Below are positions 2 through 45,272 of a stretch of 64,000 nucleotides of DNA, one piece after another. This stretch comes from Iphione sp. A-MEVVRFRX5. Its lineage: Eukaryota. The stretch's first letter is position 1. Each line of letters begins with the position of its first letter. The stretch covers positions 37,014,001 through 37,078,000 of the forward strand of contig OZ320314.1 in assembly GCA_976226885.1 (NCBI GenBank), written 5' to 3'. Below the pieces are notes generated by a model. The model was not told the DNA's origin. It made no database searches and was given only the letters and a program-made list of their open reading frames with translations. Position numbers and translations under genes: made by a program.

Positions 2-1279
2 GCACTGCCTGCTGCCTCAAAGGCTCTGTGGAGACAGTGGGACCGCCTCACTATAAGCGATGGGATCCTTCAGAGGAGATGGTATGGACTGGAAACTGGC
101 CCTTCTCGTCTCCAAACGATACTCCCAAGAAAGCGACGCCTGGAGGCTATACAAGAAGTGCACAGCGGACGCACGGGAGGACACCTTTCCGTGGACCGGA
201 CCACCTTCCTGGTGGCGTTAGCATACTACTGGCCAGGTATGCGAAAGGACGTAGAGGCATACTGTCGACGCTGCCACTGTGCACTGTTAAACAGCGATCC
301 CCAGAAACCACAGACTACATTAAGAACCTACCTGGTAGGAGAGCCCATGGAACGATGGTCGATGGATGTTGCTGGTCCACTCCCTGAGACTGCCCGGGGA
401 AATCGCTACGTGTTGATGGTGGGTGACCATTTCACCAAATGGTTGGAGGCGTTTGCGCTGCCGGACCAGAAGGCCTCCCGGGTGGCGACAGTTTTGGCTG
501 AAGAGGTCGTCGCCCGCTATGGGTGTTTCCTAGAGCTACATAGTGACCAAGGCACAAATTTCTGCAGTGAGGTACTTACCGCACTCTGCGACTTCCTTGA
601 CATTAAGAAGACACGCACCACTCCTAGGCACCCTCAAAGCGATGGCTTCATCGAGCGGAGTTTTCGCACCATGGGAAAGATGATTAAGGCCCACTGCTAT
701 GAAGTGGGAGACGAATGGGATGAAGCGCTACCCTACTTAATGATGGCATACCGAGCCTCGCCGCAAGCCAGCACCGGGTACACACCCAACTTTCTAATGT
801 TCGGGCGGGAGGTGGTGCTCCCAGTGCACGCGTTCGCGGGATTCCCGCCTGCGGAGGGAGAGGAGAAGTCACTACCCCACCAGGTAGTGGATGTCGCGCG
901 ACGTCTACAGTCTGCTTATCGTGAAGTGCGGTGCCGCCTCGGCCGGGCCGCTAGAGTGCAGGCGAGAGCGTACGATCGTTGGGTGGAGAAGCGTCCGATG
1001 ACGGAAGGGGACGCTGTCTGGCTACACGAGGCCCAGCCCCCCAGGGGGAAGAGCCCGAAAGTGCATTTCCCATGGACGGGACCGTGGCTGGTAGTGAAGA
1101 AACTGGATGAAGAAAGGATAATCATCAAACGAGCGCGACAGGCGAAACCACGAGTAGTCCACCGGAATCGGGTGCGGACGTACCGGGGGGAGAGTATTCC
1201 CCGGTGGATGCTGGTATGGCGCAAACGCCAGGGAAGTATAGACCAGCCGACAAGGGAGGAAACGACCGCCAGGGGTTAG
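2..1279 (+). CDS. pol: pol C-terminus: integrase (HHCC zinc-binding, rve DDE core, GPY/F-like motif); open from the window edge
   Basis: Frame is open from base 2. HSGRTGGH...CRRC, WSMDVAGP, LHSDQGTNF, IERSFR and PWTGPWLVV are typical Gypsy integrase motifs. Confidence 0.95.
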   Translation, partial: ALPAASKALWRQWDRLTISDGILQRRWYGLETGPSRLQTILPRKRRLEAIQEVHSGRTGGHLSVDRTTFLVALAYYWPGMRKDVEAYCRRCHCALLNSDPQKPQTTLRTYLVGEPMERWSMDVAGPLPETARGNRYVLMVGDHFTKWLEAFALPDQKASRVATVLAEEVVARYGCFLELHSDQGTNFCSEVLTALCDFLDIKKTRTTPRHPQSDGFIERSFRTMGKMIKAHCYEVGDEWDEALPYLMMAYRASPQASTGYTPNFLMFGREVVLPVHAFAGFPPAEGEEKSLPHQVVDVARRLQSAYREVRCRLGRAARVQARAYDRWVEKRPMTEGDAVWLHEAQPPRGKSPKVHFPWTGPWLVVKKLDEERIIIKRARQAKPRVVHRNRVRTYRGESIPRWMLVWRKRQGSIDQPTREETTARG

Positions 1280-1771: not shown

Positions 1772-1885
1772 TCGGGGAAGGCGGTGGTAGGAACTATTAC
1801 CAAGAAGGTGTTGATCAATAGTGTAGGAATGTACAAATTTTCCCCCGCCCAAGGAGATATAACAGATGAAGCTATGGATGAAACA

Positions 1886-1891
1886 TTTATT
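1886..1891 (-). terminator. Candidate poly(A) signal of the antisense accessory gene
   Basis: AATAAA on the minus strand ~75 nt after the TGA at 1967-1969. Confidence 0.5.
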
Positions 1892-1966
1892 ACAAGGAAA
1901 CAACGAACTAGGTTCAACAAATGTACAAGCTATTTACATCTGATCCAATCGGGCTGCCCGGATAAG

Positions 1967-2618
1967 TCACCAAGAGGCTCTACGGGGAGAGGCCTCATAA
2001 TCGTCGTCGTCCGATACTACAATGGGAAACCATGTATAGTCCCCGGGAAGGACGCCAGGATAGCAGGCCGCGAGCACATCCGGGGGCCAGGCGGCCAGAG
2101 AAGCCCGTCCGAGAAGAGGTCCCACCTCTGGGGAGGACATAGGAGTCGGACGTGAGGGGGTGTCCACCGGGGTACCCCAATCCATCGGCGAGGGCGATCG
2201 GGGACAGCTGGACGAGGAGAAGGACTCCCATGAATCCGATGACGTGGTGGAGGACCCCCATGAGACGGGGGACGGAGTGCGGAGGTAGTAGAGGGACCAG
2301 GAGTTCCCCTCACGGTCGTCCACACCCTGTTGGGGGGGAACGTCGAAGCTGCCCAAGTAGCGAGCTACCTCATCTACTCCCAGATCGGGCGAGATGGTGT
2401 CACACCGGGGCATCCAGGAAGGTACCGGGAGCGGGACAGGAGGCTCGATGGGCTGGATGGATATGTCGACATAATGAGATGGGCCAAATAGTCGAACTTG
2501 CCCTGGAGCCGGAATGTACAGTGGGCGATTGATCACAGGGTAAAGACCAAACACCCTGATGGTGGGGCCGGGAGTCCCGACATCCACATACCGTAGGAAA
2601 CTGTCTGGAGGAGGGGTG
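1967..2618 (-). CDS. Exon 2 of a predicted spliced antisense accessory gene (Pro/Ser-rich, acidic SIM-like C-terminus)
   Basis: Strong acceptor (T32 tract, then cttctcttcttcttcttgcag; AG at 2620-2619). Frame is open from the acceptor (TPPPDSFLRYVDVGTPG...) to TGA at 1969-1967 and ends ...WFPIVVSDDDDYEASPRRASW. Confidence 0.6.
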
Positions 2619-2639
2619 CTGCAAGAAGAAGAAGAGAAG

Positions 2640-2643
<4 letters not shown>

Positions 2644-2675
<32 letters not shown>
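2644..2675. repeat. A32 homopolymer (T32 on minus strand, inside the predicted antisense intron)
   Basis: Directly visible; lies ~25 nt upstream of the minus-strand acceptor. Confidence 0.95.
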
Positions 2676-2677
<2 letters not shown>

Positions 2678-2837
2678 TATGAAGATATCACAAACACTGT
2701 GCTGGGAAACTTACCTGCTGGAAGGATGAAGATGATCCAACCCTCAACAAGGAGGCCCAACTCAACAGCAAGTGATGAACTCGAGAACTGGCAACAACCA
2801 TTGTGGTGGAGGCCTCCCTTCTGCTCCGGAGACCTAC

Positions 2838-2926
2838 CTGGGTCCTGGAGGGAAACAGCAATCACTCCTCTCAGGCAAGTAAAGGCCATTGTGGGTGAGC
2901 CCAGTGATGTAGTTTGGCAACTCCAT
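2838..2926 (-). CDS. Exon 1 (coding part) of the predicted antisense accessory gene
   Basis: ATG at 2926 (catcATGG), MELPNYITGLTHNGLYLPERSDCCFPPGP, then a phase-2 donor AG/GTAGGT at 2838/2837 that joins exon 2 in frame (246 aa total). Confidence 0.55.
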
Positions 2927-2954
2927 GATGTGCACTGCAGGATGACTGGAGTCA

Positions 2955-2991
2955 GACTGACGCCGCACCCCCGGCCGCTACGGCTTATATA
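2955..2991 (-). promoter_or_regulatory. Core promoter (TATA + Inr) of the antisense accessory gene
   Basis: TATATAA at 2991-2985 and TCAGTC at 2960-2955 on the minus strand, ~33 nt apart, upstream of ATG 2926. Confidence 0.55.
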
Positions 2992-3007: not shown

Positions 3008-3732
3008 TTCGTGGTACCGCGAAAGCTAGTTGCTGAGTCGCGGACCCACGAGCGGCGAAAACCGAACTCGTGGTGCCACGAGGAAAACATCGACAGCCGG
3101 GAGACAGGCCTAACAGGGAAAACATTGAGGAATTTGGTAATCTACGAATGAAAGGGGGTCGGGGTGCCACGAGGACAGCTCGGGGAGCCACGAGAGAGAT
3201 AAATGCTCGGGGTGCCACGAGTGGCTACACCAGAAGTGGGGAACCAAAACATCCGCCGAGCCTCGTTTGGACTACAGACGCCAGCTAGAAGCCGACAGCG
3301 GAGAGAGAAATTGGCAGCTCGTGCCCCCACGAGTACACTCCTCGAAATGAAGAGTTTACGAAGAAACAGCGAGAAGTAGATGGATTGAAAACACAATCTC
3401 GAGGAAGCAGTCGAAGTACAGTCGTGGTGCCCCGAGTGGAGTTCGTGACACCCCGAGCGTGATCCAGCTCGTGGTACCACGAATCAGAGACGTCGAGATC
3501 GACTGGATTCCACACCAAGTAGGTAGGGGCCCCCGAGTGTGACCAGAGGGGCGAGAGACTCTTTGCCCCCTCTGTTTTCTGCCACTGGGAAAAAGGGGGG
3601 GGTCTCCCCGAGTTGAATCAGAGGTTTCTCCCCGGTGTCAGTTTGTGGTGTTCATCGTGACACCCCGAGCGACAGGTGGGCCTGTGTCAGACGTGGTGCC
3701 CCGAGTGGGAGTGAGTCGGTGGTGCCGCGGGT
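3008..3732. promoter_or_regulatory. Array of >=11 copies of a 16-bp imperfect palindrome (NTCGTGG-NN-CCACGAG type)
   Basis: Copies start at 3008, 3037, 3067, 3158, 3179, 3206, 3318, 3421, 3442, 3468, 3654 and 3690, with degenerate copies near 3522, 3597 and 3717. Spacers are unrelated. Regulatory role is inferred. Confidence 0.75.
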
Positions 3733-3742
3733 CCCATCCAGA

Positions 3743-5512
3743 ATGCCTCGCAGGAAAATTGAAGGAGAGAAGGTAAAGAGGAGGGTTTTGCAGCCCGATG
3801 AACCTAAGCCCCCGGGGACCGTGTTGTGCGAACAGTGTGTGAAGCGACGCCCTTTTCGCCCTGGGGACTCTTTACAGCGCCATATCGAGGAAATCCATCT
3901 GGGGAAGAGGAAACGTGATATGAAATGTTTATTTTGTCCCAGTGTTATAGGTGACGAGCAGTCCTGGGTGGCTCACCAACGAAAATTTCATCCATGGGTG
4001 ACTGATATGGGACTGATTGAGCGACCATATAGGCGGTTATATGACGTGCGACCTGCCACGACAGGGGGTGTGACGGTACCTGACGACGAGATCACCCGGA
4101 TTGTCCTAAGGGCTAGGGAGTTGCGGTCACAAGGTTGGGCCCTAACGCAGGAGGAGGCAGAACATTTGTTGGCAGAGGAGCCCCACAGATCAGCACCTCC
4201 CCTTCCCTCACGGGTAGTTAGATGGGGGACACCGCCAGCCACACCGGCCACCAGGGGGGTCCCCACGATAGACCTCACCAGCCCCCGGAGTTCCCCGAAC
4301 ACCAGCACAGCTTCAGGGCGACAGGTCGTGGACCTCACCTCCCCTGGGGGGTCTCCCGAGTTTGGTGCAACCGCCGGAGTGGGTCCTGTCTGCCAGAAAC
4401 CAGGGGACACTCCCACACCAGGAATGCTACGGGCCGACACTCCAGGGTCCCACGCCGGGGAGCCAAAGGGGGGGGCTTGTGGAAGTCAGAGCGCATCCAT
4501 ACCACAGGATCCACAGGTGGGCGGCTTGGGAGTGACGAGGGCCCCCAGCAGGGGGCAGGGGGATCCTTTCCTCGGCCAAGGTAGTTTTGAGGGGGGGACC
4601 CCTCTCCACCAGGGGATTGCGGGGAGTGGCAGTGAAGCACCCTCCAGCTACCGCTCTGTGTCTGGTTGGCCCCTCACCCCACGGGAAGGCCCTGTGTCGT
4701 GGGATCTATCCGACGCCGCCTCGGTACTGGCTCGTCTCCAGGAGGTGACTGGCTCCGAGGCAGGGAGCCCCCGCCAGACTCCGGAGAGGCCCCCTGCCGT
4801 CTCCACGAGACTACCAGTGGGGCGGCTTTCTCGTCTCATCCAGTCCCTGTTGCCACCGGACCGGGCTGAGCCTGCGGCCGCTCGGGTACATAACATCCTG
4901 GATGGCTTGGTCTCGCCCCACCAGGCCACTACCCGTGCTCCTGCTTCACCCATGAAGATCCGGCTCCCCTCTCAGGTGGTATGGCCACCAAAAACCTGGG
5001 CTCAGCTGAGCCCCGCTAAACGTCTCATGGCCTGTATGGCCATGGCATGGGTCTTACATCTTGTCGAGGAGGAGGATACCGTGCCCGCTACCTTGCTGGG
5101 CCCGCTACAGTGGCGTCCGTATCTGATCCTCCCTGGGCTTGGCATCCCTGAGTTCGAGGACTGGGGGAATTTCGCTGGCCTACTCCATCAACATAACTGG
5201 ACTGTTGAGGCGGCCGAGACGCTCGTACGAGATCTCCAGCCTGGTCTTGCGTGGGATCCCGACTCCGCGATGAATGTTGAGAAGTGGGAGTGGGAAGCAG
5301 TCAACGCGGGGGCCTGCTATGCAGTGGCCCGACCCACCCTAGTCGACATATGCCGGAATGCTCCGGGTAGACAGCGCCGTCTGGGGGAGCAAGACATCTG
5401 GGCGAGTGGTAGCGCCCCAGGTAATGGTACAGGTCCTTTGAGAACACCCAGGCCCTCTGATGTAAGGGAGCTGGAAAAGTCCGGCCCCTCAGTTTGTCAG
5501 AAAGAGCAGTAA
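3743..5512 (+). CDS. Accessory ORF (589 aa from first ATG): two C2H2 zinc fingers, two SIM-like motifs, Pro/Ser/Gly-rich middle, W-rich C-terminal region
   Basis: Uninterrupted ORF; CEQC-x14-HIEEIH and CLFC-x12-HQRKFH; TIDLTSP and VVDLTSP. The ORF track start at 3635 is a GTG; the first ATG is 3743. Confidence 0.8.
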   Translation: MPRRKIEGEKVKRRVLQPDEPKPPGTVLCEQCVKRRPFRPGDSLQRHIEEIHLGKRKRDMKCLFCPSVIGDEQSWVAHQRKFHPWVTDMGLIERPYRRLYDVRPATTGGVTVPDDEITRIVLRARELRSQGWALTQEEAEHLLAEEPHRSAPPLPSRVVRWGTPPATPATRGVPTIDLTSPRSSPNTSTASGRQVVDLTSPGGSPEFGATAGVGPVCQKPGDTPTPGMLRADTPGSHAGEPKGGACGSQSASIPQDPQVGGLGVTRAPSRGQGDPFLGQGSFEGGTPLHQGIAGSGSEAPSSYRSVSGWPLTPREGPVSWDLSDAASVLARLQEVTGSEAGSPRQTPERPPAVSTRLPVGRLSRLIQSLLPPDRAEPAAARVHNILDGLVSPHQATTRAPASPMKIRLPSQVVWPPKTWAQLSPAKRLMACMAMAWVLHLVEEEDTVPATLLGPLQWRPYLILPGLGIPEFEDWGNFAGLLHQHNWTVEAAETLVRDLQPGLAWDPDSAMNVEKWEWEAVNAGACYAVARPTLVDICRNAPGRQRRLGEQDIWASGSAPGNGTGPLRTPRPSDVRELEKSGPSVCQKEQ

Positions 5513-5667
5513 AATTTTGGGTAAAATTTCTTACCTAGTCCATACCTGCTAGCTATGGATGTGGCGTGGTTAGATTGTTGCTGGTGAGTGATCCCTTACC
5601 GTCTGGTAGGGGACCAAGCACCTGACTCAAGGAACCAGAACCACTAGGGACTGTTAATGAGAAGTTA

Positions 5668-6527
5668 GTTACCTTCATTGCTATCTGTGATTAATCGTAT
5701 GCTGTGTGGTAGTAAGTGCACCACGATTGCCATGTCCGGTTAGGACTGCTAAAGATTGTTATCAATGTCACAAGCACTCTATTTGTTACCTTGACCGATT
5801 GCTTCCTCAGATGTTTACGGATTCCTGTTAATGGTGTTTCAAATCAAGTTACCTTGTCTATGCCCTTAAGAGGGTTAGCTGAGTTAGTAAAATGTCTGAA
5901 GGGAAAATTGTATTTCCCCCAAAAAATATAAAAGGTCACTTGGTGAGACTGTTGCTGATGCCATGAGCGCCACACCCGTTACCTTGATCCAACGTTTACC
6001 CAAGATGTTTGTGACTGATTACTGCTGTTAAATATTCGAATCAAGTTACGAAAAGTTGGACGGTTAGAGAAAAGGATCTAGAAGGGAAACTGTATTCCCA
6101 CAAAAAGAAAAGGAAGCTTGCTGTCTGTGATTATTGATCCACCTAACCAGGATAAGTATTTACGTAAGGTTACTGACTGTGATTGAGGATTTTATTGCTA
6201 AGTGTTGAGATTTGTTGATCAGCTGTTGCTCAGGAGAGTTGGACTTGTTACCTTGATTGGCTGTTTACATAGATAGATTAGCCTAGTCCTAAGTCAACTA
6301 CTCTAGGTTGTTATCTTTGCCGTCGGATTGTGTGAGACCAGGGCCACTGTGTACAGTTGGCCACCTAGATTGCTACTGATAATTACTAGAATGAGACATG
6401 GGACCGAGTATATGGCCCAGACAGGTTAGAGTCAGAAGTTGAGAGAAACTAAGAAGGGAAGCTGTATTCCCCCAAAAAGAAAAGACTGTTATTTGTGATA
6501 AGGATTTCTCAGAAGAACTTGTTACCT
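5668..6527. repeat. Dispersed short motifs in the pre-PPT spacer (GTTACCT x6; GAAGGGAA-n-TTCCC-AAAAA x3)
   Basis: GTTACCT at 5668, 5785, 5848, 5978, 6247, 6521; the ~27-bp module at 5898, 6081, 6453. Confidence 0.8.
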
Positions 6528-6651
6528 GTTGGCTACCTGTGATTACCCTATTGGTTACTTAGATGTATGTTACCATGATTGGTTGTTTACCTGAGATAGA
6601 TTTTAGATGACACTAGTTACCCATGCTCATTTTGAGGCGTTGGCATGTTTT

Positions 6652-6664
6652 AAGAAGGGGAGAG
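6652..6664 (+). other. Polypurine tract (PPT)
   Basis: AAGAAGGGGAGAG directly before the TG of the LTR. Confidence 0.85.
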
Positions 6665-7550
6665 TGTAGGGGTGTTCGTGGTACCACCAGCGTAAGGCTA
6701 AGTAAGTCTATTGTATCATATGACGGTTCGTGGTACCACCAGCGTAAGGCTAAGCAAGCCTATTGTATCTTGTAATGGTTCGTGGTACCACCAGTGTAAG
6801 GCTAAGTAAGTCTATCGACAGTTCGTGGCACCACGAGTGTAAGGCTAAGTAAGTCTATTGTATCATATGACGGTTCGTGGTACCACCAGCGTAAGGCTAA
6901 GTAAGTATATCAACAGTTCGTGGCACCACGAGTGATGTGGGATGTACTAGCTGACCTCAGGGAGCCCGTTCGTGGCACCACAAGTGGTTTGTATGCTAAA
7001 AATTTATATCCAGGGTCCCTGGGTAATTAGAAGGTCACCTTGGACCCTGGGGATCCAGGTCATTGCTACTTTGTAACTAGACAGCTATGAGCTGGGTTCC
7101 CTGAACCCTGGGGATCCAGGTCATTGCTACTTTGCATCTAAACAGCTAAGAGCTGATTGGTAGACAGTAATAACACAAGTCAGTTTGTAACCATTTTATT
7201 CCATCATGTGATACATTGTTGCTATGGCAAGTGAACACCTGGTCTTGAGGATTACTATAAATATGGGCCCTGTGTGGCAAATAAACCAGTCTGTACTTGG
7301 ATACCGTTGTGGAACTTGTCTCTTCAGGGGAGTCATTAGGAACACATACCCACTTGGAGTACCATAAGGGAATACTTACCCGATAGTTCTACATTGTGAG
7401 GATCAGGAACAACTAGCCAGGATATATCCACACATAGCTGGAGTTACTTAGAGGAAATATTAACACAGAAGTTACACTGGATTAATTCATTTAGGACTAG
7501 ACACACTATAGTTGGAGTTACCAAGTGGGAGTACAACCACGCTTACTACA
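6665..7550 (+). repeat. 3' LTR (right end either 7393 or 7550)
   Basis: Starts TGTAG; TATAAA 7256-7261, AATAAA 7280-7285; CTACA at 7389-7393 and 7546-7550. The second LTR is not in the window, so the end cannot be confirmed. Confidence 0.75.
6675..6984. repeat. U3 tandem array (52/43-bp periods) carrying 7 copies of TTCGTGG(T/C)ACCAC(C/G/A)AG
   Basis: Copies start at 6675, 6727, 6779, 6822, 6874, 6917, 6969; most are followed by GTAAGGCTAAG. Confidence 0.9.
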
Positions 7551-12437: not shown

Positions 12438-14366
12438 CTAATTGGGCTTGAGTTGGAATTTTGTCAGGCGGGCTGCCCTTTTTCTGACATCCGGTAAGTC
12501 ATTCCACCCCACTGCCGCTCTGTACCTTAGGCTGCGGCCAAATGCCCTGTTCTTTGGCCGATCCACCCTGATTCTGGCCGAATGTCCTCTTCTCGTTTTA
12601 GATGAGTCAGCTAGTGGCAGCAGCCCTAGTCTGACTTGCTGGTGAGTGGCTCGCAAGGCCCTCCAACCCACCAGATCCTCCACCCTTTCTATACCACCTT
12701 TCTCACAAATACGTTTGGCGGACCATGGTGGGTTTATCTGCAGACACATCCTAACGCACCGATTAAGATGTAGCTGCATGTTGCATAACACCGCCTTGGA
12801 ACAGCTGTAAAGCACTACTGCGGCATAGTGCAGATGCGGCATTACAAGTGTTTTAAATAGGTATAACACCGTATGCCATGGCAGCATTTTCTTCACTCTG
12901 GACACTTTCAGCGATGCCGCCCACATTTTGCCTTTCACGTCCTTTAGCATCTCGCGCCCTGTCATCTTGGCATCCAACAGATAACCAAGAAGCCGCACTT
13001 TTGTGCACATTGTGAGGTCTGTCCCATTTACTTTGAGGTCTAATGGTGTACCAGCCGCTTTGCCCAGCGGCATGTAACAGCACTTGCCTTCTGACAGTAG
13101 TAGGCCGTGTTCGTGACACCATTTCGACACTCGGTCCACGCTGTGTTGACATGCCCCTCTTAGCCTAAGCCAGTCATTTGCTTTGACAATTATGGACAAA
13201 TCATCAGCGTAGAGGACGGCATCACAGTAGTTTGGCATGTGCTTGACCAATTCGTCAATCACTATGCTGAAGGCCGCAGGGCCAAATACTGATCCCTGCG
13301 GCACTCCATGCTCGATTTTCCTCAGTGAGGAATTCTGTCCATAGCACCTTACGTACTGTTTTCGATTGTCCAGGTAACTATGAACCAGTCGTCGTATGGC
13401 GCCACTTGCCCCTGCTGTCTCCAGCCTTCTGAGAACCTCCACTGATGGAATGAGGTCAAATGCTTTTCGCATGTCAAAGGCTAAGAGACAACAGTATAAT
13501 CCTGAGTTCATAGTTTCCATTGCTCTATTGATTGTGTAGGTAACGGCTGTCTCTGTGCTTCTCTGGGGTCTGAAGCCATGTTGTCTATCGCTAATGAACT
13601 TTTGCTTGTCAAGCTGTTGCATGACATCAGCAAAGAAACATTTCTCAAAGACTTTCCCGGGTAATGGCAAGATAGACACGGGTCTGTAGTTGCTCATACA
13701 GTTTGTGTCACCACGTTTGTGGAGTGGTGTCACCCATGCTATCTTCCACTTCCCCGGGTACTGTCCACTTTGTATGATGCGGTCGAAGATCCAATGCAGA
13801 AAGTCGAGGTTCAGGAGCAAAAGTTGCTTCATCACCCTTGTCGGTATACCTTCTACACCTGAAGCTTTTTTGATGTTGATTGTTTTGACGAAGGTCCGCA
13901 GTTCCGAAGGAGGCGGCAGAGTGACATCAAACGTAGAAGCACAGCTTGTCACCTGAACATCACCCCTGGCGGTCACCGGCGGTGCTAGGGCTGCTACCTC
14001 ATCAATAAAGAAGTTATTCAACTTCTCCGCGACTGACTCTTCGTGACCATCTCCGGGGTTGTTCTCCTTTGGCAGTTTCATCTGACCTTTGCCGCGCCCC
14101 AGCGCCTTGTTAAGTACCTCCCATGTTTTGGATGAATTCCCCTTCGTCTCCTGCAGTTTCAGCTTCCAGAAGTCCCGCCTGTCGTTTAGCAGTGTGCGTG
14201 CCACCTGTTTATTGAGGTGCTTGAAGATTCGAAATGAATCCACGCACCCATACTTTTTCCATTTTGCGAAAAAGTATTTCTTATCCTTGATCAACTCTAG
14301 TGTCGCATCACTAGGCCGAAACCCGTTGATCCCCTCCTTGACTTTAGTGGTTTTCTCAGGGCACAT
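12438..14366 (-). CDS. LINE ORF2, reverse transcriptase portion
   Basis: YRPVSILP, QHGFRPQRST, FDMRKAFD, GVPQGSVFGP, YADD motifs. Confidence 0.92.
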   Translation of the reverse strand: MCPEKTTKVKEGINGFRPSDATLELIKDKKYFFAKWKKYGCVDSFRIFKHLNKQVARTLLNDRRDFWKLKLQETKGNSSKTWEVLNKALGRGKGQMKLPKENNPGDGHEESVAEKLNNFFIDEVAALAPPVTARGDVQVTSCASTFDVTLPPPSELRTFVKTINIKKASGVEGIPTRVMKQLLLLNLDFLHWIFDRIIQSGQYPGKWKIAWVTPLHKRGDTNCMSNYRPVSILPLPGKVFEKCFFADVMQQLDKQKFISDRQHGFRPQRSTETAVTYTINRAMETMNSGLYCCLLAFDMRKAFDLIPSVEVLRRLETAGASGAIRRLVHSYLDNRKQYVRCYGQNSSLRKIEHGVPQGSVFGPAAFSIVIDELVKHMPNYCDAVLYADDLSIIVKANDWLRLRGACQHSVDRVSKWCHEHGLLLSEGKCCYMPLGKAAGTPLDLKVNGTDLTMCTKVRLLGYLLDAKMTGREMLKDVKGKMWAASLKVSRVKKMLPWHTVLYLFKTLVMPHLHYAAVVLYSCSKAVLCNMQLHLNRCVRMCLQINPPWSAKRICEKGGIERVEDLVGWRALRATHQQVRLGLLPLADSSKTRRGHSARIRVDRPKNRAFGRSLRYRAAVGWNDLPDVRKRAARLTKFQLKPN

Positions 14367-15201
14367 TTCTCCTAGGACTATCCTGGTGCAATTCTCCAGA
14401 TGTTCCCATGATTTCTCGTGGTCCGGGTCCTTTTTCGAAACCGCCCATCTCCAAAACTTCTCTTTGAAGTGCGGCGAGGTCCAGTTTGTTCCACTGTCTA
14501 AATGTCTTCACTTTGTCCACCAGACGATTGCCCCCTTTCTTCAGCACTGCCAGCACTGGTAGGTGATCACTGAGTGTCCAATCCAGAACGTCGCAGGCCA
14601 ATCTGCCTGCGTAATTGACCCATATTTGGTCAATCACGCGGTCAGAGTCTAGCGTAGTACCCTTCCTGATCAGCTGAGTGAATCCATTGCTGACAAGCAG
14701 ATCCACTAGACTGACCCCAGCCTTTTCTCCTCCCATGAAGTTGAAGTTGAAATATCCAGCTATAGTCACGTCGCATCTGTGTAAGGTTTTGATAAGTTGG
14801 ATAGTTTTATCAAATTCCTTGATACTATCCTTGATTCGATCATGTGGTGGCCGATACACACCAAACACTGCATGTTTTCTTCTCTTGCTGATTTTCAGCA
14901 AGACCCCCAGGAATTCACTCTCACCATGTTCCGGGCTTGTGCAAAATTCCCGTATAATGTCAATGGTTTTTTTCAGATAGATCACAATCCCCCCACCCTT
15001 GGACTTCTTTGCATTCTGTCTATCTTGTCTTACCTGTTGGTAACCCGGAACTTTAATCCCCCCATCTAGATGTGACTCATTGAGCCATGACTCCGTGATT
15101 ATACAGATGTCTACGTCTTGTTCACGGAGACATATCTCCAGGGCGTCTACCTTAGAACGTAGACTTCTTATGTTATATGCAACCAATGTTACTCCTTTCA
15201 T
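14356..15201 (-). CDS. LINE ORF2, APE endonuclease portion (separated from RT by a 1-nt frameshift near 14431-14435)
   Basis: AYNIRSL, ITESWL, GGGIVIY, GVYRPP, IDQIW, SDHLPV. Removing one A from GAAAAAG restores ...EKDPDHEKSWEHLENCTRIVLGEMCPE. Confidence 0.88.
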   Translation of the reverse strand: MKGVTLVAYNIRSLRSKVDALEICLREQDVDICIITESWLNESHLDGGIKVPGYQQVRQDRQNAKKSKGGGIVIYLKKTIDIIREFCTSPEHGESEFLGVLLKISKRRKHAVFGVYRPPHDRIKDSIKEFDKTIQLIKTLHRCDVTIAGYFNFNFMGGEKAGVSLVDLLVSNGFTQLIRKGTTLDSDRVIDQIWVNYAGRLACDVLDWTLSDHLPVLAVLKKGGNRLVDKVKTFRQWNKLDLAALQREVLEMGGFEKGPGPREIMGTSGELHQDSPRRNVP

Positions 15202-15874
15202 TATGTTAAGGTTGTGTAAGCACCCCCGAGCTCACTGCCATATACATGTTACACCTCATCACACAACCACACCCACTTTCATCACACATCTTGTACTCAC
15301 TTTCAGCCTTGCAGAGTCATAGTTGTCTTATTGACATACACCTGCACCTCCATCTACAAATTGTAGTCACCAGCAAAGCATACACTGTGACATCCATACC
15401 ACACCAAGCGGCGATGTAAGTGGTGCATTAATAAAAAGAACTTTATTCACTTTAGACTATAGAGTGGAGACAATCACTGGACCTAGAACGACATGAAGGA
15501 ACCGCACGTAAGTTGTAAGTATGGCCTTAGCAAATGTAGTCACAAGGTTATAAATTGCGTGGTTCAACTGGAATATTACAGCATGTAACTAGCAAGGTCA
15601 GTGATATTACAACACAACTATAGTTAACTATTTCAGAAATAACCAGTATTCTAAAGATCACCAGCTACCAGTTCAATCTCGATTATTGTCATTACCCATG
15701 GCCTATGATCATGGTAGAATAACCTGACTACCTCAACAGCGTGTTTGGATTGAGATCAGTTACTAAGTGCATATACAATGTACTAAGAACGACCGAAGGC
15801 ATAAATAATCAACAATTACAATAAATAGTAACAGATAAATACAAAAACATACATATACCAGGAATTTAAGAATT

Positions 15875-17413
15875 TTAAGACTTCTTGAAAAATGTGTCTA
15901 TGGTTGGCTGGACCACCTTTCTTGATAGAACTCTGGAGGAGTGGGCCTGCTGTAGTGGTACCAACAGATCCAAACATTCAATGTCGCCTTTGATGAGGAA
16001 ATGCTTCCTCATTTTCAAGAACATTTCCTGAATCTCTGGGTCACTGAGCTCACTGCCCTCTTCCTGTTTCTCCTCTGTCGGCTCTTCCTCCTCTTCCTCA
16101 ACCTCATCAGGGGCCCAATCTTCCTCATCGGGACTGTGAGTGCAGAGTTCATCATCAAGGCTCTCATACTCTGTGTGGGTCATTCTGGATTCCTCTGGGA
16201 TGCCCTCCTGGATTTTTGTGAGGAGGGAGATGAGAGGTTCATCATCAAGTTCAGGAGGACACGACACACGTTCAGCATCATCAGGAACTGGCCTAACCCC
16301 TGATCTTATGAAGCATGACTCCACTGTGGTTGGTTTTACTGCTTTTACTGCAGAATTCAACCAGCCCACTACCAGCTGCATATCCACTGTGCCCACAGCA
16401 GCCCTGGCGTCGATGGAACCATCCAGCCTTGAAACGACGTACTGTAGCAGTGATTTCTTGTAGTGTAATTTTACTGCCTGGATGATGCCCTGGTCTAATG
16501 GCTGGAGAACAGATGTGGCATTTAGTGGCAGAAACACAACTTTAGTGTTAGACAGGTTGATTCCCCCAGGATGAGAAGGGGCATTTATTAAGCACACTTT
16601 TCTCCCTTGAGCTGCCATTTTCCGATTGAAAGAGTGTAGCCACTCCTCGAAAATGGTCGTTGTCATCCATGCTTTCTTGTTATGGCGCCATGTCACGGGC
16701 AGCGATGACATATCCTTCAGATTGCGCCAACAGCGAGGTCGTGCAGCTTTGCCAATAACCAATGTCTTCTGAAACTCACCAAGGGCATTCACACAGAACA
16801 TCGCTGTGATCTGCTCCTTGGATTTTTTACTGGCAGAGACGTCTGTACCCCTGACACTCAAAGTCCTATCTGGTAATGCCCTGTAAAAGATGCCGGATTC
16901 ATCGACATTAAAAATGTCTCTTGGACCATATCCCTCGAGGATGGTGGGTAGACGCTCCAGCCATTCTTGAACTGTGACTTCATCAACTGATGATTTCTCA
17001 CCAACCACCTTGAATGCTCCAATACAGTGACGTTTTTTGAATTTCGTGAGCCATCCTGTAGATCCCTTGAAGTCATCCATACCAAGCTCTTTGGCTATAG
17101 CCAAGGCCCTGGTACAGAGCATAGGCCCTGAAACCGGTACATTCAAAGCACGAATCCGAGAAAACCATGAAAAAACTCTCTCATCGAGTGTAGAGGAGTT
17201 TGTGGAGAGGCAACGACGCTTTGCTGTTGGATCAGCACAGTGCTCAAAGTCATTCAGAATTTCTGCTTTTCTCTTCAAGATGCAGCCGACTTGAGTTTTC
17301 CCCACTCCGAATTGCTCTGCAAGCTGTCTCAAGCTACGACTTGGACTGTTCTTGATAATCTGAACCTTCTCACGAAGAGTCAGATCTCTCCTCTTGGTCT
17401 TGGTCACAGGCAT
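15875..17413 (-). CDS. pogo/Tigger (CENP-B-like) transposase, 512 aa from ATG 17413
   Basis: N-terminal HTH (LTLREKVQII...LAEQFGVGKTQV), second HTH (FKGSTGWLTKFKKRH), DDE-type core (IFNVDESG, WMTT, LQPLDQGII), acidic tail, C-terminal QPTIDTFF. Confidence 0.92.
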   Translation of the reverse strand: MPVTKTKRRDLTLREKVQIIKNSPSRSLRQLAEQFGVGKTQVGCILKRKAEILNDFEHCADPTAKRRCLSTNSSTLDERVFSWFSRIRALNVPVSGPMLCTRALAIAKELGMDDFKGSTGWLTKFKKRHCIGAFKVVGEKSSVDEVTVQEWLERLPTILEGYGPRDIFNVDESGIFYRALPDRTLSVRGTDVSASKKSKEQITAMFCVNALGEFQKTLVIGKAARPRCWRNLKDMSSLPVTWRHNKKAWMTTTIFEEWLHSFNRKMAAQGRKVCLINAPSHPGGINLSNTKVVFLPLNATSVLQPLDQGIIQAVKLHYKKSLLQYVVSRLDGSIDARAAVGTVDMQLVVGWLNSAVKAVKPTTVESCFIRSGVRPVPDDAERVSCPPELDDEPLISLLTKIQEGIPEESRMTHTEYESLDDELCTHSPDEEDWAPDEVEEEEEEPTEEKQEEGSELSDPEIQEMFLKMRKHFLIKGDIECLDLLVPLQQAHSSRVLSRKVVQPTIDTFFKKS

Positions 17414-17745
17414 GTTGTCGTTTCTGCATTCGTCTTGAGAATGATTCCCTCCAGTACAGACGCCTGCTTTTGTATGCTCCTGGAGGCTCCCCAAGTGAGT
17501 AGGCGTCAATTGCAATCAGGAACATGTGAGAACATCAGAGGCATTCAACTCCCTTTGACCCTTTGAGTCGCTCAAAGGTGATGAATATAACCGTTAGTCT
17601 ACGCTAAATCAAAGCGACACCTGCTCTTTGGGGGCCTCGGGGATGCTGATAGGTGTAAAATTTGCGCGGCCAACTGAAAACTTATTTGTCTTCACCCGGG
17701 GGGTGCGCTACTGTCGCCGTCCACAGGCAGACGTTCTCTAAAATT

Positions 17746-17874: not shown

Positions 17875-19131
17875 TAGACATGATATATTTTTTTGCTCAA
17901 ACTGTATTTGTTTCGTTCAGGCATTCAGGGTTGTGTTGTATTCTTATGATGATGGACTTGCGATTGTATTTTCTTGGGTTTTCATCAGTTCCTCCAAGCT
18001 TGTATTCCTAATGAGTTGCTTTTGCTTGAAATCTCTCCAACCTGGAGACCTCTTCACCGTAATTAACGACTATTAGGAAAAGGATAAAGTAACCATCCTT
18101 CTTAAAACAAGTTTTATTTCCTAGTTGAGAAGTTCATAGACCTTTCAAAGCCGCAGAGGCCGGGCGTTTCTACATGGGAGCTCTCTAATAGAAGAAATTT
18201 TATTTCATCACTGTAGCCTGCCCACCAACCTCTCACTAGTAGACCTCGCAACGCAAGGATCCTGTCTTTCTGTTTCTCTATCACTATTACTGAAGCATAC
18301 ATCCACCACAAGACCAACCCAGTTAAGAGAGCAACCTTTGATACACATAACGATCTAAACAGAAGCAAACACTAACATCCACATTATTTTACCAACATTC
18401 TAAGGAGATTAATTCAAGAGAGCCCCACATTGGCTTGTCCCAAGGGTTGAAAGAACGTATAAGTACTGTGCTATTTAAAACAATGGAATAGTATTGGGAG
18501 AGAATACGAAAATGAAGGCCGAAATATTAAAGTTTTGCTCAGTAGATAATATATGATAAAGTTTGACAAACATGCATGTTGGGGCATAGATAAACATTTA
18601 ACTGAACTAAGATGTTTGCAAGTACTTTTCTGAAATGTTGCAGATCCACACTTATTTGTGTGTTTGTATAAACCTGGGCCTACAGGTGAAGGGCTGGGTG
18701 TGCTGGATGATGTTTGCTGACTCATCTCCTGAAATGTCATATATGACATCACTTAGGGTTTCCTCTTTCATATCTTTATCTTGCGAATGATGCACCGACA
18801 TGTTTTCCCACAGGTAATACACCATGTCAGAAAACGGTCCTAAGAAGGACAACTTTTGTTTTGGTGGTACCAGATAATTTCAGTACATTTTCTCTAGTGT
18901 CAGTTTCATTCGAATTTTTGGCAAGGTTTATCAAATCAATATAAGTCGACTTTATGGTGAGATAAAAGATTATATGGATCTTTAAAGCATCTCTCATCTC
19001 TATTTAGAACCCATGTTATAGGGATACGTATAATTTAATTGAAAAAGTACCTAGAATACATTACACCAGCAAGGGTGAGTTGCTAGCATAACAACATACT
19101 GTATAAACTGCAAGGAGGGTATAGAACGAAT

Positions 19132-20415
19132 AGATCAACTACCGATATTGTCTGTAATTTAACAGACTATATTAAGAATTCAGTATCAAACAAAGAAACA
19201 TGTCTAGTATGTTTTTTAGACCTCAGGAAAGCATTCGATACAGTGGATCATAAGATCCTATTGGAAAAGTTAGCATTGTTAAACTTTTCAAATAGTGCAA
19301 TTTCCTTGATTTCTAGTTATTTATCTGGTAGAGAACAATATACAATCAATGGACAATTTGTATCTAACAAAGTAGGAGTGACAAAAGGGGTACCACAAGG
19401 ATCTGTTTTAGGTCCAATTTTGTTTAGTTTGTATGTGAATGATTTGCCTGAATGTGTGGATGGTTTAGGAAAAGTATATATGTTTGCGGATGATACTGCA
19501 ATAGTGACACACAATACTGATCCTAACAAAGCCATTGAAGATATGAACGCATTGCTAACAAAAGTTATTGAATGGTTACAATATCATCGGTTACAAATAA
19601 ATGTTAAAAAAACCCAATATATGGTTTTTACCAACAAGGATAAATCCTGTAAGGATAGGATGGACAAAGTTAATATTTTGGGAACAGAATTAGAGCAAGT
19701 TGGTACTTACAAATATTTGGGCTTATGGCTTGATGACAAGTTTAACTTTAATTATCACACAAGGGAAGTCATTAAGAAAATTGCAAAATCTGGATCTTGT
19801 CTAACTAGAATGGCCCCTTTGTTAAATTATCAACAACTTTTATTATTGTATAAAACTACCGTGTCCCCTATTTCTGATTACATGGACTTGATTTGGTGTA
19901 TGTCTAGTAAGGCTAATGCTAACAAGGTTTTAATTTCACAAAATAAACTACTAAAGAAATTATTTCATTTAGACAAGTATACAAGGACAAACGAACTTTA
20001 TAAGAACTTAGGATTATTAAATGTACTACAAAGAACATATTTACATATCCTAACAAGAGGTTATAGAGCACTTAGAAGGATTTTACCTGATTTTGAGCAA
20101 GAAAATTATAATCAGAGAAACCTGGATTTAAATTTGAGGAACAATGCAAGAACAAGTTTTTCTATTAAATATTACAAGAATGCCTTACAATGTAAGATGA
20201 CAACAAATATAGTTGCAAATAGTTGGAATAACTGTAAACTACCATTGGATGATGGACTTGAACCCTCAGAGTTCAAAAGGGAAACTGCAAGATTTATTTT
20301 TGACAATGGTTGATCTGTAACACTGTAACTAACAAATCTTAGCATATGCATAAGAAAAGCGAATTTTATGTTCGATTATGTATATGTTGCATTCAGAAAT
20401 AAATAAATAAAAAAT
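19132..20415 (+). mobile_element. 5'-truncated CR1-group LINE (RT C-terminal half, stop at 20313, AAAT-type tail)
   Basis: RSTTD...FLDLRKAFDTVDH, GVPQGSVLGPILF, FADD, YKYLG; tail of AAAT repeats at ~20397-20415. Confidence 0.9.
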
Positions 20416-24366: not shown

Positions 24367-27343
24367 TTAAGTGCCTTTTGCTCTTCGCAAACAGCCATCA
24401 GTTCCCAAGTGGGAGGAATGTATCTTCTCCTTCAACGTCTGGTGCTCACTCTTTGGAATGACGATCCTCTCACCCCTAAAGACTAGTCCATCATGGACTG
24501 CCATTTCATCACTCATGGAGTAGTATGGGTGCACAATTGGTGGGGCCTGTGCTTTCTCACTGGGCCATCCTTCCAGGATGACCTGCTTAAGGGCAGTCAT
24601 TGTCGGATCGACCTCGGTTGCCTTCCGTATTGCCTCAATTCGGGATTCTGTCATGGCAACATACTTGGTTGCATTGACATTCTCAAACTCTTCATGTCGT
24701 CCTTCCGTAGTCTGTCGATAAGCTCGAGATAGGGTGTCTCTTTGCCGGGAGTATAGGAGACGGTCACCTCATACTGCTGCAGCCTCATCAGCATGCCTTG
24801 TAGGCGCTTTGGTGCATTTGCCAAAGACTTCTTCATGATGTTCTGCAGTGGTTTGTGATCTGACATCACACTGACAGAGCGGCCAAATGTGTATTGGTGA
24901 AACTTCTCTGCACTCCACACTATTGCTAACATCTCCTTCTCGATTTGGGCGTATCGAACTTCTGTATCTGTGAGGGCTCGGCTTGCAAATGCTATCGGCT
25001 GACCCTCCTGCAGAAGAGCTGCGCCCAGTCCAGTCTTGCTCGCATCACATTGGATAGTGAGTTCCTTCTTGGGATCGTAATAACGGAGGACTGGCGCCTC
25101 ACTCACTAGCCTCTTCACTTGTCTCAGTGCCTTGTCTTGCGCACCGGCCCCATTCCATGGGACATCTTTCCTCGTCAGTTGTCTGATCGGCTCCATGGCA
25201 TCAGACAGTCTAGGTAGGAACCTTGCGAGGTAGTTAACGAATCCATTCAGGCGTTGCACACCCTCCACATCGCTCGGTTGCTGCATCTGTTTCACAGCCT
25301 CCACTTTTGCAGGGTCCGGCTTCAGGCCTTCACTCGTGATCAGATGTCCTAGAAATGTTACTGACTTCTGTCTTAACTTCATTTTCTCTGCATTCAGTCG
25401 TATACCGACATCCTGACATCTCTGCAACAGCTGTACAAGCTTGCGATCATGGTCCTTGCTGGATTCCTCTTCTGTCTGGCCTTTACCGTAGACCATCAGA
25501 TCATCAGCCACACATATCACACCCTCTAAATCCTGGATGCAGCTGTGTAGCTTCCTGGCAAAGATCTCTGATGATACGCTTGTCCCGAAAGGCAATCTCA
25601 ACCATCGGTATTGGCCATGTGGGGTGGCAAAAGTAGTCAGGTATGATGACTCTTCGTCCAGCATCACATGCCAGTATCCGGACTTCAGGTCCATGGTGGA
25701 GATGATCTTTGCCTCGGATAACTCTGGGAGCACATCATTCAATGTGCAGAGCGGGAAATGCTTCCTCTTCAGTGCCTTGTTCAAGGGTCCGGGATCAATG
25801 CAGATCCGCAGGTCACCGTTTTTCTTTGTTGCAACGACCATGGCACTCACCCATTCTGTCGGCTCTTGCACAGGCTTGATCACCCCTTTTGTTATCAGAG
25901 AGTCAAGTTCAGCCTTGATCCTGTGCCTTAATGCCACTGGCATGCGCCTACATGGAGACACTGTAGGGGTCACAGTGGTGTCCACGCGTAGCGTCGCAGT
26001 GCCAGGTAGATTCCCAATTGTGTCTTCAAAAACGTCTTCATATTTCTTTTCACTGCCGCAACCCTCTCAAAATTCTCCGTGTTCACTGAGATGAGGCCCA
26101 TCTTCTGGCTTGCGGATACTCCGAGGACTGGCATGAGGTTGTCATCTTCCACCACCACAAATTTGACAGAGTGCTGGTCATTGCTCACAGGGTTAATGAC
26201 CTCTAGGATGCACTCCCCGATCGGATGCTTCAGGCTCCTGTCCCACATCTCCAGTGTGCTTGTTGGCGGATCAAGCTTAGCCTTCTTGACATGCTTGAGT
26301 GGAATGAGGTTCACTGATGCACCAGAGTCTACTTGGAACTTGACTGGTTTTCCAGCCACTGTCATCTTTGCATAGATGAGTTTTTTTAGACGGCCCTTCA
26401 CACTGTTGACCTTGCTCACTCCATTTATTTCATATTCATCACTGTCGGTTTCTTCAGAGTCTTCCTGATCTACGGCATTCACTTTCTTCTTGCTCTTCTT
26501 GCACACAACAGCAAAGTGGTTTCGTCCGCCGCAATCATTGCACTGGCTCCCCCAGGCTGGACATGACTCCTTCTTGTACTCATGTTTCTGGCCACAGAAC
26601 TTGCAGGTTCTGCTCTTCCGGCTCTTTGGTTTGTCCTTGTCTACCTTCCCTGATCCCTTCTCGCGCTTTGACTTTGGCTTTGGTTTCGACCTTGGCCTCA
26701 CACCATGGACTTCATCTCCTCCCTTGGTGTTCATCTGTTTCATCTTGGCCCCTGCAGCTTCATTCGCTCGGCAGATGTCAATGCAGCGGTTTAGGGTAAG
26801 GTCCTGTATCTCCAGTAGCTTTTTTCGGGTCTCGTCGTCTCGGATCCCCATCACGAGTCGATCACGTAGAAGTGTGTCGGTCAGGCAGTCACAAAAGTTA
26901 CAACTTTTTCTCAGGTAGCGCAAAGCTGTGACGTAGGCATCAAAGTTCTCATCCGTGGCCTGCTGTCTTCCGTTGAACTTGTATCATTCATATGTCTCGT
27001 TCAGTTGCCCGATGATATGCTGATCAAACTTTGCTATTATCTGCTGTACCGTGCGATCGTCTTCATTGGCTTCGTCCTTGAATGCAAACCCGTTATACAC
27101 ACGCAATGCCTCGGGTCCGATTGAGTTCAAAAACATTGCGGTTTGATATTTTCTCTGTTGTGTGTCTAAATTGGAGATTATGGCATAGTTTCTCCACTGC
27201 TGTTTCCACAGGTTCCAATTTTCGACTTTCCCAGCCTGTAAATCTAGGTGCCCTGGGGCCTTTATCCCTGGTATGAATTTGGCATGTGCTGCTTCAGCAC
27301 CTCCGGCCCTGGCTCCCTCTCCTTGCTCCTGGTTCCCCGGCAT
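24367..27343 (-). pseudogene. gag-pol pseudogene
   Basis: ORF pieces 26984-27343, 25970-26923, 24651-25985 and 24367-24654 join into one polyprotein once the stop and frameshifts are corrected. Confidence 0.88.
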
Positions 27344-27656
27344 GGCAACTTACTTACTCACTGACCGTGGTTTGTATTGTGACTAACGGGCACAACTGAC
27401 TAACCAGTGCTGGCTTGGTAAATACAGGTAAAACTTCTGTCTAGCTGTTTTAACAGGGAATAATAATCGTGGAACCCTCTCTCAGGGTGGCAGTTACACA
27501 GTAGAGTTACTCTTCTCGGGATAGGAGCTGGGTTGAGCACATGGCATGGCTTCTGGCTTCAGGCCCTCTGCCACACAACAGCCTTTCCTCACTCTCTTAA
27601 CAGAAGAAATAGAAAAAGCTTCCTACTCACAGTTTCTTCATGCCCTTCCCAGTCCT

Positions 27657-39043: not shown

Positions 39044-40772
39044 TCAGCTGGTTTATTTTTTGGGGGAGTTTTTTTTCTTTTTTCTTTTTTTTTGGGGGGG
39101 AGGGGGTTCAATTTGATTTTACATTACAAGCCAGGCTCCCCCCGTGGACAGTGATTGTTAATTGTTGGAAAACGCAACCCTGTCCACAAGAAATTCCTTC
39201 ATAAAAGCTACGACCAAAGGGAAGAGAAATCCAAGTGTTACTCTTTTCTGATAAAAACTAAGTATCTTTGTTAATAAAAAATAGGATCAAAACCTGTTGT
39301 AAACGTAATTCCTTAAAATAATCTAAGAGGGAAGTTTATTTTAGTTACGACAACTGAATCTTCATCCAGCTTAACGTTAAGATGAATAAATATCATACTG
39401 TGGCTAATCTTATACACAATGTTGGTTAAAGAAATATCTTATATTAGACAACCTTCTTATTTGTTCTATAGGGCACTAGAAGAATATCAGGTGCAGCGAG
39501 CTTGATTAGATATGATGAATCCATAGTAATGGTCACGTCAAAGTAGAAATTGTTTTATACTAGTATAAATTGTGAAAGATCAGTCCTGATGATATATCTT
39601 CAAACTTCAAAAGCTTTATGACTTGTTTCTATAAAGAAGTAATGAAGGCACACAGACAAAACACACAAGTAGTTGAAGTTCCTTCGAAAAATTGTTCTGT
39701 GACCACGGTACATGTACTAGAATGTAGGCCTACACTTCATATAATATAAAAGGTAATGAAAATTAAGAATATTAGATGCTTATAATATACATTATATGAT
39801 TATAATAAGGATTTAAAGCCAAAGCCTATCCATTCCAAAACATGAAAGTCCCCTAATGTACAGAGTCCATTCCTCCCAAACTTAAATCTCTCCCCGCAAA
39901 AAAGTATTAGAACTTATGCTTTCAAAACCAGCAGGTTTGTTACAATCATGTCGTTTACAATCCATTAGACGTCGACCAACTTCGCATTAAAAAAGCGTCA
40001 TGAAAGATGGTAAGACTACAATAATGGGCTGCTGCAAGTCATTGACCCCAACAGCTCTGTAATTACCAAGGCATTGCCTTAGCAGGTAGGCCAATGAGAA
40101 AATCAAACACTGGCCCTTTGGGGTGTACACGGAAAACTGAAAATGTCCCCAACCGAATTTATAGTCATTTTTAACCAACAAAATCCTATTTTTTATAAGT
40201 ACTCCCTGCAATTAACAAAATATGGCATATTTAATCGGGTAAATATGGTCCATGGACTCAACAATTTAGAATTCATTCTTCGGCAGAGGCGACCAACTGT
40301 GTTGTCATGAATATGACACTGCCTGTATAGACAACATTCCAACCAACCCAATTCCGTTCTAATTTCCAACACCAGTTGGGGAAGTAAGGCACTTTCAAAC
40401 GAAGTTATGAAAAGCTAATATTGATATTATCCAGAATGCTGGCTTTGACCTTTGGTGCAAGAAGAAAATAGACTGAGTGAAAATTTGGGAAAAAAGAAAA
40501 GTGATTTGATACCCATTCGACGTTTAATTGAAATTCAAATTCAAGTACATGTAATATAATTCTACGAAGGCGTGTGAAAGTAGATTAGTAGATAATTAAA
40601 ACAGTTTTGAATTATAAAACGTCCCTCCGAATGGAATCAAATACACCAATTTATTCAAAAGATTTGTAAACAGCAACGATTGAAAAGGTTTCGGTGGCAC
40701 TAATTCTGTCAAGAAAGAAAATGTAAGGGTCAATTTCCTAGATATCAAATTTGATCCACCTGGCGACCTCAC

Positions 40773-40802
40773 CTTCGTTTCGTTTATATGGTAGACTTCC
40801 AT
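40773..40802 (-). CDS. Micro-exon 7 of repeat peptide precursor: DGSLPYKRNE
   Basis: tttcag|ATGGAAGTCTACCATATAAACGAAACGAAG|gtgagg; 30 nt, phase 1-1. Confidence 0.85.
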
Positions 40803-41522: not shown

Positions 41523-41552
41523 CTTCATTTCTTCTGTATGGAATATGCCCAT
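41523..41552 (-). CDS. Micro-exon 6: DGHIPYRRNE
   Basis: cttccag|ATGGGCATATTCCATACAGAAGAAATGAAG|gtaaag; 30 nt, phase 1-1. Confidence 0.85.
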
Positions 41553-42639: not shown

Positions 42640-42860
42640 CTGCACAAATGTGTCATTTTTTTGCACTTTCTCCCAGAAATTCGCCATTTTTTTGCACTTT
42701 CTCCATGGAATTTGCTGCAATCTCCATGAAATAGCTGTTTCTCTGCACTTTCTCCCTGAAATCTACCATTTTTTGGCCCATTCTCTATGGAATTTGGCAC
42801 AATTTCCATGAAACAGCAGTTTTTCTGCCTTTTATCCAAGAAGTTTGCTATTTTTTCATA
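42640..42860. repeat. Degenerate minisatellite (TTTTGCACTTTCTCC-containing units)
   Basis: Several imperfect copies of TGCACTTTCTCC and TGGAATTTG visible. Confidence 0.55.
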
Positions 42861-45242: not shown

Positions 45243-45272
45243 CTTCGTTTCTCTTGTATGGCGTTTGGCTCT
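45243..45272 (-). CDS. Micro-exon 5: ESQTPYKRNE
   Basis: ctttccag|AGAGCCAAACGCCATACAAGAGAAACGAAG|gtaaga; 30 nt, phase 1-1. Confidence 0.85.

Follow-up and report, generated by a model that had tools for sequence, protein, structure and literature searches.

The window, by which we mean the whole 64-kb stretch of DNA analysed, begins inside the integrase of a retrotransposon whose 5′ LTR, primer binding site, gag, reverse transcriptase and target-site duplication lie upstream of the window start. The integrase (H2C2 plus rve core; positions 2–1279, plus strand; PF17921, E 1e-16; PF00665, E 1e-13) runs off the left edge as an open frame and forms the 3′ end of a gypsy pol, with the pol stop at 1279. 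Its top matches in database searches were 49% identical and are RT-RNaseH-IN polyproteins, the named ones coming mostly from cnidarians, molluscs, an echinoderm, fish and an arachnid. With a retroviral-type integrase last in pol, and with a polypurine tract (6652–6664, plus strand) followed by a TG...CA 3′ LTR that carries a promoter and a poly(A) signal (6665–7393, plus strand, TGTAG...CTACA; TATAAATA at 7256, AATAAA at 7280, CCAGTC at 7286), the carrier is a Ty3/gypsy LTR retrotransposon. No second copy of the element was found within the 64-kb window. The distance from pol to the LTR, 5.4 kb, is unusually long, and the retroelement region has an AT skew of about +0.27 on the plus strand.

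Several repeats accompany the element. A 38-bp tandem repeat (3.2 copies, 1635–1758) follows the pol stop, ahead of the antisense poly(A) site described below. Positions 5513–6664 form a degenerate repeat region, in which TTACC occurs 13 times on the plus versus once on the minus strand and GTTACC eight times; read on the minus strand, the TTACC repeats amount to 11 donor-like sites, and they could be factor half-sites, which we take to be RFX-like, or distant donors for the acceptor at 2619. An X-box-like GTTGCTATGGCAAG (7218–7231, plus strand), presumably an RFX site, precedes the LTR TATA by about 40 nt.

The flanking DNA is AT-rich, holds spliceosomal micro-exons and other transposons, and has the appearance of an invertebrate genome. 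Pfam identified a LINE with endonuclease and reverse transcriptase (12438–15231, minus strand), a pogo/Tigger-type transposase (15875–17515, minus strand), a second reverse transcriptase fragment (19087–20313, plus strand) and a second gypsy element with protease, reverse transcriptase and RNase H (24367–27349, minus strand), and found no family in 150 of 167 host-region ORFs of at least 60 aa scanned. A host gene at 40765–50100 (minus strand) has at least six similar micro-exons; the four recovered are 30 nt each and encode 10-residue repeats with a dibasic site, such as DGSLPYKRNE, which suggests a resemblance to a neuropeptide precursor assembled from micro-exons.

A spliced gene model on the minus strand

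Between pol and the LTR, the initial annotation had described a complete, spliced antisense gene. All of its minus-strand signals are present in the order claimed, as their coordinates confirm: TATATAA, TCAGTC, ATG, donor, T32, CAG, TGA and AATAAA. The predicted core promoter (2955–2991) combines TATATAAG, with TATATAA (2991–2985) at −33, and an initiator, TCAGTC, at 2960–2955. Exon 1 (2838–2958) would begin at A 2958, as judged from the initiator, and comprises a 32-nt 5′ UTR and 89 coding nt from ATG 2926, the first ATG after the initiator, with A at −3 and G at +4. It ends at 2838 in phase 2, with the donor GTAGGT beginning at 2837, and is followed by a predicted GT-AG intron of 219 nt (2619–2837, GTAGGT...TTGCAG) and by exon 2 (1967–2618, 652 nt), which holds 216 full codons plus the TGA at 1967. 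The joined exons give 246 aa with a single stop. Because a TAA at 2644–2642 shuts the exon-2 frame 23 nt 5′ of the acceptor, and because its first in-frame ATG comes only at 2413, with none for 68 codons, the first third of this frame would be translatable only after splicing.

Downstream, the predicted 3′ UTR and poly(A) region (1780–1966, minus strand) contains AATAAA at 1891–1886 and TGTA at 1938, 1927 and 1894, and lies in an AT-rich dip (GC 0.39–0.43 versus 0.58–0.61 on either side). At least two TGTA within 60 nt upstream accompany six of the 103 AATAAA in the window, including that at 1891, and some 600 nt separate the antisense poly(A) signal from the pol stop. Base composition follows the two-exon model in part, with a GC content of 0.61 in exon 2, 0.39 in the 3′ UTR, 0.54 at 2837–2715 and 0.25 (0.38 without T32) at 2714–2619. 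No terminal repeats were found around the cassette. On the genomic strand, the T run reads A32 (2641–2675), the longest homopolymer in the window, immediately 3′ of ATTAAA; it is a possible slippage site, RNA-seq internal-priming artefact or premature poly(A) site. An origin of the run as a retroposed poly(A) tail was rejected, as inspection by eye revealed no target-site duplication or properly spaced signal.

The T32 and pyrimidine tract cited in support of the acceptor both exist, but their roles need revision: since a branch-like TTAAT (A 2642) comes just after the T32 (2675–2644), the T32 probably precedes the branch point, and the tract proper would be the stretch with 18 pyrimidines in 20 positions before CAG 2619. 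A second, perfect donor, CAG/GTAAGT at 2714, had been missed within the intron. This donor is proximal, slightly stronger than that at 2837 in U1 pairing (−12.1 versus −11.8 kcal/mol, with six host donors at −6.8 to −10.0 kcal/mol), and sits at a GC boundary, downstream of the exon-like composition of 2837–2715. One-step splicing from 2714 to 2618 would turn ATG 2926 into the start of a 30-codon upstream ORF and limit the products to 86 or 101 aa, in other frames. With 123 nt between the two donors and a CAG at 2715 or 2718 that could serve as acceptor, removal in two steps would restore the exon-2 frame; the route through CAG/GT at 2715/2714 yields 246 aa, or 247 if a 3-nt micro-exon is retained. 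Donor 2714 combined with a weaker acceptor at 2605 would instead join an upstream frame (ATGs 3090 and 2889) to exon 2.

We keep recursive splicing at 2715/2714 as no more than a possible route, since the process has been described for long introns and pyrimidine-rich 20-mers are common on the minus strand; the similarity of the two donor contexts (P 0.018) is partly forced by their common consensus. The proposed 2838/2618 junction thus retains a donor and an acceptor that are present and in frame, but its use is uncertain, the donor at 2714 being proximal, at least as strong and placed at the GC boundary. With this second donor, the exact 246-aa isoform is uncertain, as several routes lead to the same C-terminal frame; we put the chance that it is the main product a little below even.

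Evidence that the exon-2 frame is coding is mixed. Among the three minus frames, the model frame scores highest, by 0.094 bits/codon (P 0.02–0.025; true ORFs −0.016 to 0.261). In a six-frame codon test it ranked fourth of six, with true frames first in 22 of 23 control windows, although this test is confounded by the A-rich bias of the genomic strand. Searches with exon 2 returned no homologue among 443 candidates from a word index, none in a full phmmer search of 1.84 billion representatives, no match in the ESM atlas (low recognition score, 1328), no Pfam (E 0.1) or PHROG family, and nothing by tblastn against 53 related loci. Exon 1 (29 aa), too short for the other searches, matched nothing in PHROGs or the related loci. 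A PDB match to a phage tail spike (9d93, E 0.002) was set aside as likely compositional (Pro/Gly/Ser/Trp) and unsupported elsewhere, and a single-sequence AlphaFold model of exon 2 was uninformative (pLDDT 37). By its predicted sequence, the antisense product is acidic, lysine-free, Ser/Thr-Pro-rich and largely disordered, with no obvious basic nuclear signal and, by Pfam at E 0.1, no TRP28 (PF04195) or SMC-like domain. An env-like ORF would be in sense orientation with a transmembrane segment; the exon-2 frame is antisense and its highest 19-residue hydropathy is 1.03. Of the claimed 246-aa product, the in-frame joined model stands, whereas the protein itself is uncertain, with no homologue found and a codon rank of fourth over both strands.

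The divergent gene, the palindrome array and related elements

Divergent from the antisense cassette lies an intact sense ORF of 589 aa (ATG 3743; 3743–5512, plus strand) without a Pfam match. It has a basic N-terminus with basic clusters and two C2H2-like fingers (3827–3898 and 3926–3991, plus strand), a long disordered middle and a Trp-rich C-terminal domain. Its atlas feature matches include zf-C2H2 clusters at 0.90–0.92, and CTCF fingers were matched at E 1 only. Residues 40–200 gave no homologue among 573 candidates, the whole protein had no relative in the genome contig collection, and its AlphaFold model was poor (pLDDT 44).

Both predicted products carry patterns of SUMO-interacting motifs (SIMs), of the SIM-a and SIM-b classes as defined in PMC3631770. 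PIVVSDDDD occupies residues 228–236 of the 246 in the antisense product (2000–2026, minus strand), and its PIVVSDD fits SIM-a; in the sense ORF, TIDLT (4265–4279, plus strand), 20 residues before VVDLT (4325–4339, plus strand), is one residue off SIM-b, which VVDLT fits. Across 127,996 six-frame residues no SIM-b other than VVDLT occurs, and background pol proteins contain 0.067 SIM-a and 0.013 SIM-b per 1,000 residues. The patterns were first noticed by eye, and the shuffle P values are uncorrected for that search: 0.045 for the antisense SIM-a with the published pattern, 0.004 with a pattern tightened post hoc, and 1e-4 for the presence of two [ILVM]DLT in the sense ORF.

The space between the divergent genes (3009–3704) holds 12 copies of a 14-bp palindrome, TCGTGGTACCACGA, with up to three mismatches, against 0.05 expected. 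Seven more occur in the U3 of the LTR (6676–6983) and one in the rest of the window; an unbiased scan ranked this palindrome as the top recurring one. The closest array copy is about 18 nt from the antisense TATA. On alignment, the copies at 3009–3704 agree in the motif while their flanks are unrelated, and once the palindromes are masked the region resembles the LTR in neither orientation (P 0.72 and 0.66). Because the motif is kept, the flanks differ and the masked region is unlike the LTR, the array resembles a cluster of binding sites kept by selection more than a remnant of an LTR. That an element protein binds it is a guess, and a host factor would be as likely. An inverted-LTR origin of the cassette gained no support from the same masked comparison or from a comparison of the cores alone (P 0.32). 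The description of the cassette as a self-contained antisense transcription unit holds up at the level of sequence, through the palindrome array shared with the LTR, the AT-rich dips, the within-strand codon bias and the C-terminal SIM, but does not extend to transcription itself.

Related loci came from a scan of bacterial and archaeal genome records (gypsy-type contigs L001–L059). Dozens of gypsy integrase contigs occur within bacterial genome records, presumably as mis-binned eukaryotic (animal) DNA. From 59 loci fetched, six were left out and 53 analysed, and the 26 that extend 1.5 kb or more past the integrase were scanned; L010, L038 and L048 were represented by their last integrase match alone and hence fell outside the scan. 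All are at most 41% identical to the window element over the full integrase, none of them close, and in a quick integrase tree, built without named clade references, the window groups with P0004 and P0005 and with no locus. In eight of the 26 loci, a long sense ORF lies 3′ and contains a loose C2H2-like pattern. Finger ORFs end in a TatD nuclease domain at L026:9097–11439, L027:10551–13166, L029:2827–6129 and L036:9115–11262, and in a BTB_2 domain at L025:7326–9089. A palindrome array lies behind the finger ORF of L036 (11295–11627), and one near-palindrome is repeated on both sides of the polypurine tract in L016 (5047–7140). Motif arrays, several of them palindromic, are found in further 3′ regions, including L023:2059–2605 and L020:5083–5350, and GDSL-lipase-like ORFs with 61% mutual identity lie beside the gypsy elements at L020:5905–6537 and L023:3029–3658. 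L001 has TATATAAG plus TCAGTT behind its polypurine tract. The distant relatives scanned contained no antisense cassette. Finger ORFs and motif arrays therefore recur in this part of the gypsy tree, and the spliced antisense cassette is found only in the window element.

A probable minus-strand accessory gene and its alternatives

We read the cassette, with a probability of roughly 0.58 for the reading as a whole, as a real minus-strand accessory gene that would be co-activated with the LTR and whose product may act on SUMO-linked silencing. A palindrome-binding factor would turn on the LTR and the antisense gene together, and an mRNA of about 0.87 kb would join ATG 2926 to the exon-2 frame, directly (2838/2618) or via 2715/2714. 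On the genomic RNA the antisense splice sites and poly(A) signal go unread, and the intron therefore outlasts each round of reverse transcription; the initial annotation had argued likewise from the antisense placement, and its logic is standard, being that of globin vectors built in reverse orientation (PMC6775231). Transcription and splicing of the unit seem quite probable, and translation of the exon-2 frame is probable by a smaller measure.

SUMO has been linked to transposon silencing. In the least certain steps, the acidic, disordered antisense protein with its terminal SIM would work with the divergent zinc-finger protein, and the two would engage or divert SUMO-dependent silencing at the element; we regard this SUMO role as doubtful. 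We also consider, as a speculative extension and an unlikely one, a self-contained module in which both accessory genes, with their SIMs, surround the palindromes, the fingers bind these palindromes and the pair counters SUMO-dependent silencing in a sequence-specific manner. If true, this module would parallel, in an animal retrotransposon, VANC or the Tax/HBZ pair.

The arrangement might instead be due to chance, as the T/C-rich minus strand of an A-rich retroelement would supply open frames and pyrimidine tracts for free. The strand bias is real, and the exon-2 open frame alone is unremarkable (P 0.02, 0.07, 0.16 and 0.42 under four nulls). Strand bias does not, however, favour a TATA, an AATAAA or the palindrome array. 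Strict promoter pairs, defined as TATAWAWR plus YCAGTY with the TATA at −28 to −35, occur only twice in 128 kb (both strands of the window), at the LTR (7256, plus strand) and at the antisense cassette (2991, minus strand). A full-model scanner, set to demand a promoter, the first ATG, a donor, an acceptor, 150 codons and a poly(A) signal, matched the antisense cassette alone in the window and nothing in 2,000 order-2 Markov simulations of the 5.4-kb region, a figure that is optimistic because the thresholds were set after seeing the locus. A promoter-free scan for spliced ORFs gave three models in the 5.4-kb region, all on the minus strand and all ending at TGA 1967, against none in any of the 26 related loci (about 120 kb, both strands). 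The antisense arrangement as a whole is unlikely to be chance, and we regard chance as a very improbable explanation.

The cassette might also be a passenger, namely a piece captured from a host gene or what is left of an inverted LTR or of a nested element, intact only because the copy is young. An intron-bearing cassette can be carried in antisense only, this one is absent from the relatives scanned, its core promoter has the TATA-plus-initiator grammar of LTR promoters, and L001 carries such a pair behind its polypurine tract; yet neither the masked region nor the cores alone resemble the LTR, no terminal repeats flank the cassette, and retention of the palindrome amid differing flanks suggests that the motif is under selection. 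We hold this origin to be quite improbable. Still unlikely, in our judgement, is that the unit is transcribed, spliced at 2714 and acts as a regulatory antisense RNA, its long frame being incidental; the transcript would pair with the 3′ genomic RNA or interfere with its transcription, as has been proposed for the non-coding micropia antisense RNAs. The perfect proximal donor at the GC boundary, the unremarkable length of the exon-2 ORF, the lack of a homologue in our searches and the micropia precedent given in PMC7264820 are consistent with such an RNA. The first ATG, the phase and the acceptor all fit one long frame, however, and the same frame has the within-strand codon margin and the terminal SIM pattern; furthermore, the predicted transcript stops before pol, leaving the coding region uncovered, no Rfam match was obtained for it, and the intron has no unusual fold (z −1.3). 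Taken together, the comparison favours the accessory gene.

Comparison with known systems

Antisense accessory genes of LTR retrotransposons are known mainly from plants and fungi, with their function open (PMC7264820). Those between pol and the 3′ LTR, termed aORF-3R, include Grande gene23 in maize and the genes of RIRE2 in rice, Retand in Silene and PvRetro13 in bean, as well as brtn of Boty in Botrytis (PMC7264820, PMC11963269). Like the window element, their carriers are Ty3/gypsy elements with a multi-kilobase pol-to-LTR region containing an antisense gene and repeats; the gene model described here occupies the same position (2926–1967, minus strand, between pol and the 3′ LTR). Grande gene23 is reported to be transcribed from its own upstream promoter (PMC7264820), and a predicted core promoter and a motif array lie upstream of the antisense frame in our element. 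In contrast to the aORF-3R set, the window element has an animal host, a predicted intron, a TATA plus initiator, no TRP28 or SMC domain, a divergent zinc-finger ORF and a palindrome array common to its LTR. Boty brtn may have several exons and could then offer a spliced fungal precedent.

The deltaretroviral antisense genes HBZ and APH-2/3/4 are spliced and start in the 3′ LTR (PMC10186651). Their antisense mRNAs are spliced, with a short coding first exon, as is predicted for the antisense cassette, and they encode a regulator of their element. The cassette differs in having a predicted internal promoter (2991–2955), 3.7 kb from the LTR, and no bZIP, and in overlapping no identified sense gene; an additional antisense isoform started in the LTR may exist. 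VANDAL elements of Arabidopsis pair motif arrays with element-encoded anti-silencing VANC proteins (PMC5735166). The likeness lies in a dense short motif in non-coding parts, partly tandem and beside accessory genes of the element; in the window, 19 of 20 palindrome copies fall in two non-coding clusters. VANDAL is, however, a plant DNA transposon, and its protein is unrelated. Reverse-oriented beta-globin lentiviral cassettes place promoter, intron-bearing gene and poly(A) signal in antisense and keep the intron in the genomic RNA (PMC6775231); they are engineered, and the antisense cassette would be their natural counterpart. Drosophila micropia, as cited in PMC7264820, produces non-coding antisense RNAs complementary to its reverse transcriptase region and is likewise an animal gypsy-type element with an antisense promoter.

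The literature searched, subscription papers, Repbase/Dfam notes and supplements aside, described no animal gypsy element in which a spliced antisense gene has an internal promoter. Spliced antisense genes are invisible to ORF-based annotation, and the review in PMC7264820 urges a search for antisense and spliced transcripts. A clean animal case would mean that repeat libraries hide reverse-strand, intron-bearing genes, and would let one test whether retrotransposons encode their own anti-silencing factors. Overall, the best reading of the locus is an antisense accessory gene of the Grande gene23 and brtn kind, of which the animal, spliced version would be new.
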